Sequence record: MT185428
Reading direction: 5' to 3' (one strand)
DNA from: Escherichia phage EC6098
Length of the DNA stretch: 4,526 nt
Each line of letters starts with the position of its first letter. Within the stretch, counting starts at the first letter, position 1. The notes beneath the pieces were generated by a model that saw nothing but the letters and a program-made list of their open reading frames with translations, did no database searches and was not told where the DNA came from. Shown here one piece after another: positions 2 through 4,526 of the stretch. A program made the position numbers and the translations under genes.

Positions 2-29
2 GTTAAACTAAATATACATTATGCGCACT
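2..29 (-). other. dif-like XerC/XerD recombination motif (candidate attachment site), reverse orientation relative to canonical E. coli dif
   Basis: Plus strand 2-29 is GTTAAACTAAATATACATTATGCGCACT. The reverse complement of E. coli dif (GGTGCGCATAA-TGTATA-TTATGTTAAAT, recalled from memory) is ATTTAACATAATATACATTATGCGCACC. By hand alignment: XerC arm 10/11, central hexamer 6/6, XerD arm 7/11, total 23/28. Confidence 0.5.
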
Positions 30-41
30 AAGGTGCGCATA
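20..41. repeat. Perfect 9-bp inverted repeat TATGCGCAC-(TAAG)-GTGCGCATA; duplicates the XerC-arm-like sequence in inverted orientation
   Basis: Positions 20-28 (TATGCGCAC) are the exact reverse complement of 33-41 (GTGCGCATA), with a 4-nt spacer. The repeat overlaps the dif-like motif and lies just upstream of the Rep ribosome-binding site. Confidence 0.9.
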
Positions 42-62
42 TGCGTATTCTGGAGGTGTGTC

Positions 63-926
63 ATGGCTTGTACCCGTCCTTTGAACGCGTACCAGATGCC
101 ATCGGGGAAGATTTTTTTCACGCCGTCACGTGGCGCTAAATTCATTCAGTTGCCCTGCGGTCAGTGCATCGGTTGCCGTCTTGCTCATTCTCGTGACTGG
201 GCGACCCGCTGCGTTCATGAAGCCCACATGCACGATCACAATTGTTTTATCACCCTGACTTATTCGCCTGAGAATTTACCTGAAGGCGGTACTCTCGTTC
301 GTAAACATTTCACCGATTTTATGAAGCGTTTGCGTAAGGCTTTGGCTGTTGATGATATTTCGATTCGTTTTTTTGGCTGTGGTGAATATGGCTCTAAATT
401 AGAGCGACCGCATTATCACGCGATTATTTTTGGATATGACTTTCCGGATAAGACATTACACAAGGCTGGAAGATTTAATTTATATAGGTCTTCGCTTCTT
501 GAAAGATGTTGGACTTTTGGTTGGTCTGTTGTTGCTGCTTTTAGTTTTGAGTCGGCTGCTTACGTGGCGCGATACTGTGTTAAAAAAGTCACCGGTTCCC
601 GTGCAGATGAGCATTATGGACATCGCATACCCGAGTTTTCGGCTATGAGCAACAGGCCTGGTATTGGCTATGATTTTTTTATGGAATATTACGATGACAT
701 AGTTAATTCAGATGCGTGTATTGGTCGCGGCGGTCGTCAGATAAAACCGCCCCGCTATTATGACAAGTTATTATCAGGCTGTGATTTTGAGAAGTTGCAG
801 CAAAATAAAGAACGCCGACAGTTAAATGCCCAGGTATTAGACCCGTGGCGTTTGCAGGATTTGGATAAATTTAATCTGGTTAAATTCCAGCGAATGATGA
901 GGAAATTAGAAAATGGCTCACTCTGA
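63..926 (+). CDS. VP4: Rolling-circle replication initiation protein (HUH endonuclease, Microviridae VP4 / phiX174 gpA-like)
   Basis: Carries the three rolling-circle motifs: FITLTY (motif 1), HYHAIIFG (HUH motif 2) and YVARYCVKK (motif 3, two tyrosines spaced like the phiX174 gpA catalytic pair, YVAKYVNKK as recalled). Cys-rich N-terminal segment CGQCIGC...C...HEAHMHDHNC. Start chosen at ATG 63 because GGAGG at 52-56 lies 6 nt upstream. The track's ATG at 21 has no Shine-Dalgarno sequence and sits inside the palindrome, so it is less likely. Confidence 0.9.
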   Translation: MACTRPLNAYQMPSGKIFFTPSRGAKFIQLPCGQCIGCRLAHSRDWATRCVHEAHMHDHNCFITLTYSPENLPEGGTLVRKHFTDFMKRLRKALAVDDISIRFFGCGEYGSKLERPHYHAIIFGYDFPDKTLHKAGRFNLYRSSLLERCWTFGWSVVAAFSFESAAYVARYCVKKVTGSRADEHYGHRIPEFSAMSNRPGIGYDFFMEYYDDIVNSDACIGRGGRQIKPPRYYDKLLSGCDFEKLQQNKERRQLNAQVLDPWRLQDLDKFNLVKFQRMMRKLENGSL

Positions 927-1182
927 TGCAGTTTATGTAATTCACGACAAGCTGATTAATGCTGATGTTTTTATGTTTATGGCCCAGCATGACGGTATTG
1001 CGAAAGGACATTTGCACGCGTTTTGTAACCGTATGCAGCGCACTGATTTTTCGTTGCACCGCGTGACTGCTTATGATTTTGCTGACCAGCAGCTGGTTCC
1101 GGTCGATATTGACCGTGTTTATGTTTGTGAAGCTACTCCGGCGTTCCTGAAGGATTCTGAAGATGCGTACATCGAAGCCTAA
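913..1182 (+). CDS. VP5: Small protein downstream of Rep, VP5-like (possible ssDNA synthesis/packaging accessory protein); function not established
   Basis: 89-aa ORF whose start overlaps the Rep stop by 14 nt (ATG 913, Rep stop 924-926). Same strand and syntenic with gokushovirus VP5. Purine-rich GAGGA about 10 nt upstream. Assignment rests on position and size, not on a recognised motif. Confidence 0.55.
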   Translation: MAHSDAVYVIHDKLINADVFMFMAQHDGIAKGHLHAFCNRMQRTDFSLHRVTAYDFADQQLVPVDIDRVYVCEATPAFLKDSEDAYIEA

Positions 1183-1660
1183 GTTCCATACCCGCTATAA
1201 CCCGCCACCGTCGCCCGGCATCGTGTTTGAAGAACCGACGATGACCCAGCAGCATTTTCGCGACGAGTGCGACATTAACAAGATTGTTGAGCGTGCGATA
1301 AGAACGGGAGACACGACAGTCTTTACCAGTGCTCAACGTGCTGAATTCTACGATGCATCCGCGATTACTGATTACGTGGACGCAATGGCTTTAATTGACG
1401 ACGTTCACGACGACTTTAAGAGCCTGCCGTCCACGATTCGCTCGATGTTTGGTAATAACGTTAAACAGTACGTTGAGTGGATGAGTAATCCAGCAAACTG
1501 GAATCAAGCGCGTGAGCTTGGATTGTTGAGCGGCGGAGAGGTTTCGGCGACCGAACCGAAGGTTCGCGAGTCGGAACCTGCTCCGGCGTCCCCGCGGGAG
1601 CGTTCCGGTGCTGAAATGAATAAAGCACCAGATGCAGGTTCCGAACCTGCCAAAACCTGA
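1163..1660 (+). CDS. VP3: Internal scaffolding-like protein (VP3-like), acidic
   Basis: 165-aa ORF immediately upstream of the capsid gene, overlapping the VP5-like ORF by 20 nt. Acidic, D/E-rich core (DECDINKIVERAIRTGD...DYVDAMALIDDVHDDF) resembling gokushovirus VP3 as recalled. The C-terminal 45 aa are Pro/Ser/Glu-rich and probably disordered. Start is uncertain: an in-frame ATG at 1241 (MTQQHF...) is an alternative. Confidence 0.7.
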   Translation: MRTSKPKFHTRYNPPPSPGIVFEEPTMTQQHFRDECDINKIVERAIRTGDTTVFTSAQRAEFYDASAITDYVDAMALIDDVHDDFKSLPSTIRSMFGNNVKQYVEWMSNPANWNQARELGLLSGGEVSATEPKVRESEPAPASPRERSGAEMNKAPDAGSEPAKT

Positions 1661-1680
1661 AGACGGCTCCGGCCCTTCAG

Positions 1681-1717
1681 CCTGGCACAGCGCCCTACTT
1701 GATGTAACTGTGCCAGG
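1681..1717. repeat. Intergenic hairpin: 10-bp perfect inverted repeat (CCTGGCACAG / CTGTGCCAGG) with a 17-nt loop containing ACTTGAT
   Basis: Positions 1681-1690 are the reverse complement of 1708-1717. Loop 1691-1707 is CGCCCTACTTGATGTAA. Lies in the 157-nt VP3-VP1 intergenic region. No T-tract follows, so it is not an intrinsic terminator. Confidence 0.85.
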
Positions 1718-1729
1718 TGACACCGAAAC

Positions 1730-1757
1730 TTACAGGCGGCTCCCACGAAGCCTGTAA
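1730..1757. repeat. Second intergenic hairpin: 8-bp stem (TTACAGGC / GCCTGTAA) with a 12-nt loop
   Basis: Positions 1730-1737 are the reverse complement of 1750-1757. Followed by AAA rather than a T-tract, so not a classical terminator on either strand. Confidence 0.8.
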
Positions 1758-1759
1758 AA

Positions 1760-1817
1760 AGGTGTCAGTTTATACAGTAGTTTGTATAGTATTTAAACAA
1801 TTCCCTGAGGGGGGTTT
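1760..1817 (+). promoter_or_regulatory. AT-rich leader of the capsid gene with a candidate -10 element (TATAGT, 1785-1790) and G-rich Shine-Dalgarno sequence (GAGGGGGG, 1807-1814)
   Basis: TATAGT matches TATAAT at 5/6 and is preceded by TG at 1783-1784. No convincing -35 hexamer at 17-bp spacing. The Shine-Dalgarno core lies 3-7 nt upstream of ATG 1818. Confidence 0.3.
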
Positions 1818-3518
1818 ATGAGTAAATTCGGTCGTAAAGTACCTAGTAATGCAAAAAGTCAGCATAATTTTTCAGTAATCCCGAGTGCCAATATTCAGCG
1901 TTCGGTCTTTAACCGCAGCTCTGGTTATAAAACCACTTTTGACGCTGGTTATTTGATTCCCGTGTTTCTGGATGAGGCTTTGCCGGGTGATACGTTCCAC
2001 CTGAAAACGTCCGTACTGGCGCGTTTATCCACGCCAGTGGTGCCGTTTATGGATAACCTGCGACTGGACATCCAGTATTTTTCCGTGCCCTACCGTCTGG
2101 TCTGGGATAACTGGCAGAAGTTCAACGGTGAGCAGAAGAATCCAGGCGATTCGACGGATTACCTTATCCCGCAGATTAAAGCCCCTGCAGGCGGCTTCCC
2201 TGTAGGCTCCCTTGCCGATTATTTTGGTGTTCCCACAGGTGTGGAGAATATCAGTGTAAGCGCTCTGCCGTTCCGCGCTTATAACCTGATTTATAACGAG
2301 TGGTATCGTGATGAAAACCTGATTAATTCCGCCCCGCTTCCGCTTGGCGATGAGGAAGAAACAGGCCTCGCCAATTTCCCGCTGCGTAAGCGTGCCAAGC
2401 GTCACGATTACTTCACAAGTGCCCTGCCGTGGCCTCAGAAAGGTGAAGGCGTTGAGATTGGTTTAGGCGTTCCGCCGTCGTATACGCTGGAGTACCCTTA
2501 TTACAAGGAAGGTATGGGATTTATTTCGTCTAACTATGGTGCGTCTGGAAATATTGGTCGTACTTTTCCGACGTATATTGCTCGTAGTAGTGTTGGTGAT
2601 GATTCTTCATCTAACATTGGTAATGCTGCTTATTTTTCCGAAGGCCTGGAGAATGGTATTAATTTTCCGAATGCTCCGGCTCGTGGTCGCTATGATGTGC
2701 TTGGTGGTTTTGACCCCAATACACCTCCGGTTACGTTGAAGAAAGAAGGTGGTGAAGTTGTTGATAACCTCACGATTAACTCGCTGCGTCAGGCGTTCCA
2801 GCTTCAGCGGCTGCTTGAGCGTGATGCTCGCGGTGGTACGCGATACATTGAGATTATTCGCAGTCATTTTGGCGTCATTTCTCCTGATGCCCGTGTTCAG
2901 CGTCCTGAGTATCTTGGCTCTGGTTCGTTCGATATAAATATTAATCCCGTTCTTCAAAACTCCGCGACTACCGACGCCAGTCCGCAAGGTAACCTTGCCG
3001 CTTATGGCGTTTCAGGAGGTGTTAACCGTGGTTTTTCTCACTCTTTTGTTGAGCATTGCTTTGTTATTGGCCTTGTCTCCGTTCGAGCAGATTTGACCTA
3101 CCAGCAAGGCATTCCGCGCATGTTCTCCCGTCAGACCCGCTTTGATTTCTACTGGCCTGCACTGGCCCACCTGGGCGAACAGGCTATTCTTAACAAAGAG
3201 ATTTATGCGCAAGGTAACGCCAAGGATGATGAAGTCTTTGGCTACCAGGAACGTTATGCGGAGTACCGCTACCGACCGTCCCAGATTACTGGTAAATTGC
3301 GTTCTACCGACCCGCAATCCCTCGACGTGTGGCATTTAGCCCAGCGGTTCGACTCTCTGCCCGCACTGAATCAGGAGTTTATCGAGGAGAATCCACCGAT
3401 GAAGCGCGTTCTCGCCGTACAGGACGAACCCCAGTTCATCATGGATGCGTTCTTTGACCTGAAGTGTGTGCGGCCTATGCCTGTTTACTCAGTACCAGGT
3501 CTTATTGACCATTTCTAA
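1818..3518 (+). CDS. VP1: Major capsid protein (Microviridae VP1 / F-like)
   Basis: 566-aa ORF with strong Shine-Dalgarno sequence. N-terminus MSKFGRK...FSVIPSANIQRSVFNRS...FDAGYLIPVF and the central block LRQAFQLQRLLERDARGGTRYIEIIRSHFGV are characteristic of Microviridae capsid proteins as recalled. A Gly/Ser/Asn-rich insertion at roughly aa 210-315 is consistent with the gokushovirus surface loop. Confidence 0.95.
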   Translation: MSKFGRKVPSNAKSQHNFSVIPSANIQRSVFNRSSGYKTTFDAGYLIPVFLDEALPGDTFHLKTSVLARLSTPVVPFMDNLRLDIQYFSVPYRLVWDNWQKFNGEQKNPGDSTDYLIPQIKAPAGGFPVGSLADYFGVPTGVENISVSALPFRAYNLIYNEWYRDENLINSAPLPLGDEEETGLANFPLRKRAKRHDYFTSALPWPQKGEGVEIGLGVPPSYTLEYPYYKEGMGFISSNYGASGNIGRTFPTYIARSSVGDDSSSNIGNAAYFSEGLENGINFPNAPARGRYDVLGGFDPNTPPVTLKKEGGEVVDNLTINSLRQAFQLQRLLERDARGGTRYIEIIRSHFGVISPDARVQRPEYLGSGSFDININPVLQNSATTDASPQGNLAAYGVSGGVNRGFSHSFVEHCFVIGLVSVRADLTYQQGIPRMFSRQTRFDFYWPALAHLGEQAILNKEIYAQGNAKDDEVFGYQERYAEYRYRPSQITGKLRSTDPQSLDVWHLAQRFDSLPALNQEFIEENPPMKRVLAVQDEPQFIMDAFFDLKCVRPMPVYSVPGLIDHF

Positions 3519-3535
3519 GTTACATTGTCACTTTT

Positions 3536-3558
3536 GGCCTCTGCGGAGGCCTTTTTTT
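3536..3558 (+). terminator. Rho-independent terminator between the capsid and pilot genes
   Basis: GGCCTC-(TGCG)-GAGGCC forms a perfect 6-bp GC-rich stem (3536-3541 / 3546-3551) with a 4-nt loop, followed by seven T residues (3552-3558). Begins 18 nt after the capsid stop codon (3516-3518). Confidence 0.8.
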
Positions 3559-3572
3559 CATGAGGTGAAATT

Positions 3573-4352
3573 ATGGGCTTTTTATCATCTGCCGTTGGTG
3601 CTGTTGGTTCCATTGCCGGTTCTCTTCTCGGTGCCCACTCTGCCCAGCAGAACGCCGCACAGGCGAACAAGTTAACGATGGATTTGGCCAAAAACGGTAT
3701 GCAGTACCGCGTACAGGATTTGCGAAAAGCTGGTCTTAACCCGATTCTGGCCGTTACTGGTTCCGGTGGTCTTGGTTCCGTCAGTTCGTCAGGTATTCAG
3801 GCCGCCCAGCCTGCCGATTTCTCAGGAGTGGTTAATTCTGCGGTTAGCGTATTTGACGCCTTAACGCGCCGTCAGCAGCAGGAAGTTGCCCGTGAAGGCA
3901 TCATGTCTCAGATTGCGTTACAACGTAACCAGATTGCGAATAGCGCGGCTGATGTGAAGCTTAAAGAGGCTCAGGCTGCCCAGGCTATCCAGAGTGCCGA
4001 TAACATGCGATCGCAGTCGAATCTGATTAATCAGCAGGTTTTGACCGAGGCTTCCCGCCGTGCCAATATTGAATCTCAGACAGGCCTTAATTCTGCACAG
4101 CGGATTAGAACACAGTATCAAACTATGCAGGATAAGGTTATTCATGACTATTTACAGACTGATGCCGGTAAGGCTTCTACGGTAGGTTCTTATGATGCAA
4201 AATCTGGCGGGCTTCCAGCTCTTGGTAATTATATTTTTGGTGCTGGCGCTCGTTTCTTTGGTGATAAAAGTTCTGCGAAAGCGGTAAGCAAGGGGGGACG
4301 CCTCCCCCCTAACCAGTTCCAGCAGCAATTGATTAACAACTATAGGAGGTAA
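3573..4352 (+). CDS. VP2: DNA pilot / minor capsid protein (VP2-like, functional analogue of phiX174 H)
   Basis: 259-aa ORF with Shine-Dalgarno GAGGTG (3562-3567) 5 nt upstream. Gly/Ala/Ser-rich hydrophobic N-terminus (MGFLSSAVGAVGSIAGSLLGA) followed by a long Gln/Ala-rich, probably coiled-coil segment. Sits directly after the capsid gene, as in gokushoviruses. Confidence 0.75.
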   Translation: MGFLSSAVGAVGSIAGSLLGAHSAQQNAAQANKLTMDLAKNGMQYRVQDLRKAGLNPILAVTGSGGLGSVSSSGIQAAQPADFSGVVNSAVSVFDALTRRQQQEVAREGIMSQIALQRNQIANSAADVKLKEAQAAQAIQSADNMRSQSNLINQQVLTEASRRANIESQTGLNSAQRIRTQYQTMQDKVIHDYLQTDAGKASTVGSYDAKSGGLPALGNYIFGAGARFFGDKSSAKAVSKGGRLPPNQFQQQLINNYRR

Positions 4353-4354
4353 TT

Positions 4355-4474
4355 ATGGCTCGTTCTCGCCGTCGTATGTCTAAGCGTTCTTCCCGTCGTT
4401 CGTTCCGTAAGTACGCAAAGACGCATAAACGTAACTTTAAAGCCCGCTCCATGCGTGGCGGCATTCGTCTTTGA
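4355..4474 (+). CDS. Small arginine-rich DNA-binding/packaging protein (phiX174 J-like; gokushovirus small basic ORF)
   Basis: Hand translation gives MARSRRRMSKRSSRRSFRKYAKTHKRNFKARSMRGGIRL (39 aa, roughly 45 percent Arg/Lys), ending at TGA 4472-4474. Consensus AGGAGG at 4344-4349 lies 5 nt upstream of ATG 4355. The start is 2 nt past the VP2 stop codon. Not in the supplied ORF track, presumably because of a length cutoff. Confidence 0.75.
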   Translation: MARSRRRMSKRSSRRSFRKYAKTHKRNFKARSMRGGIRL

Positions 4475-4504
4475 TTGACAAAGTTGATCGTAACGATCTA
4501 TGAT
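4475..4504 (+). promoter_or_regulatory. Candidate sigma70 promoter reading rightward across the window end (toward Rep if the genome is circular)
   Basis: Perfect -35 TTGACA at 4475-4480, an 18-bp spacer, then -10 TATGAT at 4499-4504 (5/6 to TATAAT). Predicted transcription start near 4511. Located immediately after the small basic ORF stop codon. Confidence 0.5.
4486..4498. repeat. Short palindrome GATCG-TAA-CGATC containing two GATC (Dam) sites, within the promoter spacer
   Basis: Positions 4486-4490 (GATCG) are the reverse complement of 4494-4498 (CGATC). Lies between the -35 and -10 elements of the candidate promoter. Confidence 0.6.
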
Positions 4505-4526
4505 AATTATCGTAAGTCGTTGTTTT

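Follow-up and report, generated by a model that had tools for sequence, protein, structure and literature searches.

The 4526-nt genome of Escherichia phage EC6098 (MT185428) contains, close to the start of its Rep gene, a sequence resembling the chromosomal dif site of Escherichia coli fused to a perfect palindrome. This raises two questions: is the dif-like sequence an attachment site for the host's XerC and XerD recombinases, and what is the palindrome for? We analysed the whole genome, hereafter the window, and compared it with related prophages and viral contigs. We are confident in an answer with two parts: positions 2-29 are an attachment site (attP) used by XerC and XerD on double-stranded DNA, and the palindrome is an accessory stem-loop of the Rep leader.

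The first part is not new. Xer integration of EC6098 is already known, having been demonstrated experimentally for this same phage (PMC7062461). A first-pass annotation, made from the raw sequence, recognised a genuine Xer site, but finding it again adds nothing to the published work. The adjoining hairpin seems to be undescribed: the text of the EC6098 paper mentions neither a hairpin, nor a stem-loop, nor a promoter at this locus, and uses 'palindrom' once, about dif itself (PMC7062461). What we add is small, namely hybrid junctions that pin the crossover to the spacer, a comparison with the known classes of Xer-exploiting elements, a recurring but optional hairpin, and a predicted promoter that would be cut off by integration.

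The EC6098 genome

EC6098 is the gokushovirus revived by Kirchberger and Ochman (eLife 2020, PMC7062461), whose Supplementary file 1 lists PTSN01000025 as the MOD1-EC6098 prophage. Positions 11-4526 of the window are 100% identical to the prophage on this contig (assembly GCA_002965865.1), which comes from Escherichia marmotae MOD1-EC6098. The MT185428 sequence is the excised circular form, because its positions 1-10 are supplied by the phage XerD arm found at attR. It contains six genes, all in one orientation:

63 (ATG) to 926 (stop), plus strand: Rep/VP4 gene (Pfam PF23343 REP_ORF2-G2P, E = 1.4e-20)
913-1182, plus strand: VP5-like gene
1163-1660, plus strand: VP3 scaffold gene (Pfam Chlamy_scaf, E = 5e-34)
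1818-3518, plus strand: VP1 capsid gene (Pfam Phage_F, E = 4e-185)
3573-4352, plus strand: VP2 gene
4355-4474, plus strand: VP8 gene

The VP4-VP5-VP3-VP1-VP2-VP8 set, the capsid and scaffold matches, and the presence of the prophage in an Enterobacteriaceae host identify EC6098 as an enterogokushovirus (Gokushovirinae). The exact Rep protein is present in 78 blocks of a public collection, and the nearest match in the phage collection is Microvirus mar4 (86%). A Pfam search of the six proteins revealed no integrase domain.

Three features away from attP deserve mention. Two of them hint that the capsid gene may be transcribed as a unit of its own: a weaker promoter-like site (GTGTCA-17-TATAGT, positions 1762-1790) upstream of VP1, and a canonical intrinsic terminator (GGCCTC-tgcg-GAGGCC followed by TTTTTTT, positions 3536-3551) directly behind the VP1 stop codon. 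The third, at 4291-4310 inside the 3' end of VP2, is AGGGGGGA-cgcc-TCCCCCCT, a palindrome that is perfect over 8 bp. The counterpart of this palindrome in a free viral contig (L010) is followed by a T-tract and was called as terminator-like on both strands.

A dif-like attachment site

The features of the locus are as follows:

2-12: phage XerD-binding arm of attP, GTTAAACTAAA, degenerate (7/11 to the dif XerD arm); found at attR once the phage is integrated
13-18: central region (spacer) TATACA, the strand-exchange site (6/6 to E. coli dif)
19-29: phage XerC-binding arm, TTATGCGCACT (10/11), recognisable as phage-derived by its T at position 29
20-41, plus strand: perfect 9-bp palindrome or stem-loop, TATGCGCAC-taag-GTGCGCATA, with arms at 20-28 and 33-41 and a 4-nt loop at 29-32
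32-42, plus strand: lone half-site, the XerC arm copied in inverted orientation, GGTGCGCATAT (10/11)

Read in the order XerD arm, spacer, XerC arm, positions 2-29 are GTTAAACTAAA-TATACA-TTATGCGCACT; the reverse complement of E. coli dif is ATTTAACATAA-TATACA-TTATGCGCACC. The two agree at 23 of 28 positions (XerD arm 7/11, central hexamer 6/6, XerC arm 10/11), and we reproduced all the counts of the first-pass annotation. The layout is that of a XerCD core site: two arms of 11 bp, one for XerC and one for XerD, on either side of a 6-bp central region. The next-best match on either strand of EC6098 reaches only 17/28, and the best score on either strand never exceeded 20/28 in 2000 mononucleotide shuffles. 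The palindrome at 20-41 is indeed perfect over 9 bp. The partial half-site annotated at 32-42 is likewise real: it matches the inverted XerC arm at 10/11 positions, while the stretch 32-59 read as a full dif site scores 13/28, the 17 nt beyond the copy giving neither a spacer nor a XerD arm.

Reverse-complemented, the motif given in the paper, GGTGCGCATAATGTATATTTAGTTTAAC, equals positions 2-29 save for the outermost base of the XerC arm (PMC7062461). At this base (window position 29; position 3980 of L010) the free viral contig has C instead of T, and the synthetic EC6098 likewise carried C (PMC7062461). With C at position 29, the XerC arm matches at 11/11 and the palindrome grows to 10 bp with a 2-nt gap.

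The function of the site has been established by published genetics (PMC7062461). In wild-type E. coli, EC6098 formed lysogens at a frequency of 17.7%; the frequency was 0% once xerC or xerD had been knocked out, as in the mutants in which the first-pass annotation had proposed to examine lysogen formation. Complementation rescued the xerC knockout, but not the xerD knockout. Likewise, no lysogens (0%) were obtained with phages from which either arm, that of XerC or that of XerD, or both had been deleted (Table 1 of PMC7062461). Because the XerC-arm deletion retains the inverted copy at 32-42 and still abolishes lysogeny, the copy cannot substitute for the XerC arm. According to the published primers, the XerC-arm and whole-motif deletions also take out the left arm of the palindrome, and these phages still infected cells and made circular genomes (PMC7062461). 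The palindrome is dispensable for infection. Lysogenic colonies keep integrated and non-integrated cells at a ratio of ~4:1, a mix that the authors ascribe to ongoing excision and reintegration; they left the exact mechanism of integration open (PMC7062461). We found no evidence against an attP function of positions 2-29. The view of Microviridae as strictly lytic, from which the annotation started, is outdated, as it partly acknowledged itself. Its proposal that this microvirus integrates at dif by means of the host XerCD is borne out by the published experiments and by all the junctions that we fetched.

Prophages and their junctions

A collinear prophage is present in seven of 5426 complete E. 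coli genomes, at 86-94% identity, between a fimbrial cluster and hipBA. More than 15 other contigs carry prophages, from E. marmotae, other Escherichia backgrounds, Intestinirhabdus alba, Enterobacter cloacae and metagenomes; the scan of genome contigs contributed only the one from I. alba. The more than 20 prophages examined sit exactly at dif and are flanked by two dif-like sites with swapped arms. The predicted arrangement, an element next to dif and bounded by a second dif-like copy, was thus seen in every prophage fetched. In the EC6098 clade, attL is ATTTAACATAA-TATACA-TTATGCGCACT, combining the host XerD arm with the phage XerC arm (27/28), and in attR, GTTAAACTAAA-TATACA-TTATGCGCACC, the phage XerD arm is joined to the XerC arm of the host. 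The outermost base of the XerC arm is T at every natural attL, the host C at nearly every attR, and C in empty E. coli sites.

Given that host and phage arms are swapped between attL and attR, the crossover lies between positions 10 and 29. The hybrid junctions place it in the spacer and fit double-stranded recombination. In the published table, the motif on the left is labelled 'bacterial' (AGTGCGC...) and that on the right 'phage' (PMC7062461); strictly, and unlike these labels, both junctions are hybrids, as shown by the outermost XerC-arm base, which changes sides as expected for a conservative exchange across the spacer. An empty site rebuilt from the two host flanks and canonical dif was matched at 100% identity in E. 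coli genomes and was covered to at least 80% in 3354 genomes. As the rebuilt site occurs intact, insertion neither adds nor removes host bases. EC6098 can be classed as an IMEX: it is integrated at dif between swapped-arm flanks, encodes no integrase of its own, and depends on xerC and xerD according to the published work.

Several loci contain tandem or compound gokushovirus arrays at dif (L089, 1581-10263; L142, 1186-9586; L143, the whole locus). The I. alba locus (L089) harbours two different phages, with Rep genes at 1661 and 6001, L142 has two prophage copies, and L143 at least three head-to-tail copies; the latter array may be an assembled concatemer.

Transposable elements are also found at these sites. 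A circular 5.9-kb gokushovirus genome (L009) has acquired a 1.5-kb insertion sequence (1-1600; 5931-5956) located 5 bp from the phage XerC arm, where it occupies the place of the right arm of the EC6098 palindrome; it encodes a 491-aa transposase with HTH_28/23/32/29 domains. Related transposase genes lie 5 bp from the attR XerC arm in EC6098's own host (L100, 10494-11110), followed by a SIR2_2 gene, and in a second locus (L099, 10505-11960), followed by a TIR_2 gene. The 5-bp spacer in the EC6098 host, AAGGT, is of the phage type, not the host type. All three elements fit the dif-targeting IS1202 family (PMC10132070).

Six distant gokushovirus contigs (L041, L045, L049, L061, L064 and L071), whose Rep proteins are 43-45% identical, contain dif-like motifs of other types, for example ATTTCACATAC-TATATA-TTGTGCGCCAC; L064 and L071 have two motifs with perfect XerD arms. 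These motifs suggest Xer-mediated lysogeny in other hosts.

Mechanism of integration

The likely course of integration can be pieced together from the site and its junctions. attP mimics dif through its near-perfect XerC arm, its identical 6-bp spacer, and a XerD arm that is degenerate yet required. On the double-stranded replicative form, XerC and XerD would pair attP with dif and swap strands across the spacer, thereby inserting the phage. The resulting attL is a functional dif (27/28) and attR a weaker site, and the reaction is reversible. The palindrome does not belong to the recombination site; it is an accessory stem-loop of the plus strand, with the XerC arm serving a second time as its 5' half. 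As for the order of strand exchange, the identity of the spacer (6/6) allows either XerC or XerD to act first. The failure of complementation to rescue the xerD knockout (PMC7062461) is a point against this account.

Elements that exploit Xer recombination fall into several classes. Members of the CTX-phi class use a folded single strand in an irreversible, XerC-only reaction. The VGJ-phi class is double-stranded, has spacer homology on the XerC side only, and is recombined XerC-first. The TLC-phi class is also double-stranded, with a dif-like XerC arm and spacer and a degenerate XerD arm, and is recombined XerD-first with the help of the activator XafT. Judged by sequence, the EC6098 site is most similar to the class of TLC-phi of Vibrio cholerae and the gonococcal genetic island. 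In all of them, the XerC arm and spacer are near-identical to dif and the XerD arm is degenerate; the integrated element ends up between a genuine dif and a weaker site, and integration is reversible. There are differences, too. Host and phage family are not the same as those of TLC-phi and the gonococcal island, and the EC6098 XerD arm is only partly degenerate (7/11) and is required (PMC7062461). Unlike TLC-phi, EC6098 has no detectable XafT: none of its six proteins matches XafT/DUF3653 in Pfam at E <= 1, a search that is blind to non-homologous activators. A TLC-phi/gonococcal-type site without a XafT-like gene sharpens the mechanistic question left by the original paper.

With VGJ-phi, EC6098 shares a single dif-like site of 28-29 bp that is used double-stranded by a single-stranded DNA phage, as well as the position of the prophage between two Xer sites and reversible integration. 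However, the VGJ-phi spacer has no homology on the XerD side, which forces XerC-only exchange, whereas the EC6098 spacer TATACA is identical to that of dif at all six positions. The VGJ-like pattern is present in the sister gokushovirus clades A, B and D, in which the spacers TGTAAG and TGTAAA keep only the XerC-side bases.

The palindrome and its distribution

A perfect hairpin of at least 9 bp occurs somewhere in 8.9% of Markov-simulated genomes; for a hairpin that copies a pre-specified arm with a loop of 3-8 nt, the expected number is ~2e-5. The EC6098 hairpin dominates the fold of the single-stranded plus strand (z-scores of -2.2 to -3.8). Its right arm and loop contain a 12-nt sequence, AAGGTGCGCATA, that is invariant in 13 haplotypes of the clade, while six of the ten adjacent nucleotides are variable. 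An Rfam scan of the whole genome at E <= 1 gave nothing at the hairpin, the sole match being a chance snoRNA at 2345-2376.

Related phages differ at this location. Some have an inverted copy of the XerC arm: L137 and L138 (Rep identity 86% and 84%) have the same 9-bp, loop-4 form, L145 (66%) has GTGCGCA 9 nt past the arm, and L107 (65%) has GTGCGCAT 10 nt past the arm, followed by TTTTTG. Tested lineage by lineage, such copies are improbable in shuffled leaders (P = 0.0002-0.005). The hairpin also recurs in L142-1 (74%), with yet another spacing: here the XerC arm is a variant, TTATACGCA, and its partner, TGCGTGTAA, is found ~31 nt downstream, the two enclosing an inner hairpin; the stem features one compensated pair (G-C to A-T) and one wobble, and z = -4.3. 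In L141 the place is taken by a 10-bp palindrome of unrelated sequence, with TTCTCTT behind it. The inverted copy is missing from class B (L005, L006, L092), class C (L007, L094), mar4, L139, L140, L143, L146 and L089-1. Overall, about half of the sampled lineages (~10/16) have no hairpin and are still found at dif. We therefore discarded the idea that the palindrome is needed for integration, as L005, L006, L007, mar4, L139, L140, L143, L144 and L146 carry dif-type sites, or sit at them, without it. A pattern scan of IMG/VR for a XerC arm with an inverted copy returned, beyond L010/L125 and L107, only unrelated hairpins with no dif context, and the same architecture was not found in the six distant dif-bearing gokushoviruses mentioned above.

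The variable spacing, the compensated pair and the substitute hairpin favour a structural stem-loop over a second XerC site of fixed geometry. On the plus strand, the EC6098 stem is followed by ATGCGTATTCT and was not called as a terminator; the minus strand was called (tail ATGTATATTT). With such a poor U-tract after the stem, the hairpin of the EC6098 clade is unlikely to be a canonical plus-strand terminator. T-tracts do follow the analogous plus-strand hairpins of L107 and L141, as given above. We rejected a minus-strand terminator, since there is no minus-strand gene or promoter that would give it meaning. In several RNA folds the XerC arm pairs with the ribosome-binding site of Rep, but we set this pairing aside as well: the z-scores are weak (-0.9 to -1.5) and there is no covariation in lineages with variant arms.

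The Rep leader

Two further features are needed to place the hairpin relative to Rep:

52-58, plus strand: Shine-Dalgarno sequence GGAGGTG, preceding the Rep ATG at 63
4475-4504, plus strand: predicted sigma-70-like promoter TTGACA-18-TATGAT, just upstream of attP, identified by an 11/12 consensus match only

The start at ATG 63 agrees with the RefSeq annotation of homologous prophage genes. The first-pass annotation had the palindrome immediately upstream of Rep; its counts hold, and the start that goes with them is ATG 63, not the in-frame ATG 21. The latter has no ribosome-binding site, and the 14 codons it would add to Rep are not in frame in class-B relatives and, within the EC6098 clade, show non-conservative changes.

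The predicted promoter is kept in all palindrome-bearing haplotypes. In the circular genome, transcription from it would cross attP and the hairpin before reaching Rep, so that the hairpin would belong to the Rep leader; in the prophage the hairpin lies just within attL. With the promoter upstream of attP and Rep downstream, integration moves them to opposite ends of the prophage, ~4.5 kb apart: the promoter ends up on the right and Rep on the left, a separation that the EC6098 paper does not address. No promoter-like site was found in the host DNA upstream of attL.

Role of the hairpin

An inverted repeat containing Xer-arm sequence, in a single-stranded DNA phage that uses the host XerCD at dif, brings to mind CTX-phi, and the first-pass annotation had speculated about a folded attachment site. 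XerCD would then recombine the folded plus strand directly with dif. The 9-bp stem does recreate a duplex XerC arm in the plus strand of EC6098, and it can be extended imperfectly over the spacer. However, the folded structure of CTX-phi, ~150 nt in size, is built from two complete dif-like sites in inverted orientation, ~90 nt from each other, whereas EC6098 repeats only the XerC arm. No duplex XerD arm is available: the best plus-strand complement of the XerD arm and spacer matches at 12/17 positions and is located at 2518, 2.5 kb away. The hairpin strand that XerC could cleave, GGTGCGCATAT followed by GCG, is not homologous to the dif spacer TGT. If exchange took place at the hairpin, Rep would end up beside the host XerC arm in the opposite orientation, as is seen in none of the more than 20 prophages, and GGTGCGCATAA-GCGTATTC junctions would result; the prophages instead match the double-stranded site at 2-29, and lineages without a palindrome integrate with the same junctions. 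Finally, integration of EC6098 is reversible (PMC7062461), that of CTX-phi irreversible. We give virtually no credence to a folded site in EC6098. It is also improbable, if less extremely so, that the inverted arm at 32-42 is a second XerC half-site that tunes Xer recombination at attP or attL, for instance by increasing XerC occupancy locally, which would offset the weak XerD arm, or by biasing integration versus excision. The copy matches the XerC arm at 10/11 positions and does not vary in the 13 haplotypes, GGTGCGCA-type copies appear again in L107 and L145, and after integration the copy remains beside a functional dif (attL). Against such a role, its distance from the true arm is 3, 9, 10 or ~31 nt, which is hard to square with a fixed protein geometry, and the L142-1 copy tracks that phage's own variant arm rather than the XerC consensus. 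The two arms are back to back, so they do not form a recombination site, and many lineages integrate without any copy; the synthetic wild type and natural phages lysogenise regardless.

Hairpins serve as minus-strand origins or primosome entry signals in the intergenic regions of other single-stranded DNA phages, and the EC6098 hairpin could act in this way on the packaged single strand. No other local structure of the plus strand is as stable, and the region in which it lies is the only non-coding one of any size. Yet the XerC-arm and whole-motif deletions, which destroy the stem, still give infectious phage and circular genomes (PMC7062461), and about half of the related lineages have no equivalent hairpin; a role in complementary-strand synthesis is therefore very unlikely. 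Somewhat easier to entertain, but still unlikely, is a palindrome without any function, arising by quasi-palindrome correction through template switching in single-strand replication or left over from past Xer events. Partial versions that template switching could perfect do exist in relatives (GCAC-taagag-GTGC in L007; CGCAC-tacgg-GTGCG in L089), and the palindrome is dispensable for both infection and integration. What speaks against a neutral origin is its recurrence in three or four lineages that are divergent and differ in loop length, with the low probabilities given above for each, the absence of any change in 12 nt beside a linker with six of ten sites variable, and the unrelated hairpins at the same position in L141 and L142-1.

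Most likely, then, the palindrome forms an optional plus-strand stem-loop in the Rep leader. What this stem-loop does can be suggested only tentatively: it may be a modulatory attenuator or a terminator-like insulator of Rep expression, a role that we rate as a real possibility falling somewhat short of an even chance. More speculatively, attP might be a dual-use switch in which the XerC arm doubles as the 5' half of a recurrently selected stem. Integration would cut Rep off from its only strong promoter, located beyond the crossover point, silencing the prophage without a repressor, and the stem-loop inside attL would shield Rep from host read-through; on the circle it would attenuate Rep, possibly with the involvement of XerC binding. 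We doubt that this full scheme is correct. The hairpin and the separation of the promoter from Rep could nevertheless explain how a six-gene phage without a repressor keeps lysogeny.

The predicted promoter itself contains further symmetry. Its spacer includes the palindrome GATCG-taa-CGATC (4486-4498), with two GATC Dam sites; across lineages, including class B, the GATCG stem is conserved and the loop varies (TAA, TAT or TGA). A second palindrome, GATAATTATC (4502-4511), is overlapped by the -10 element. Both may be operators or methylation-sensitive elements.
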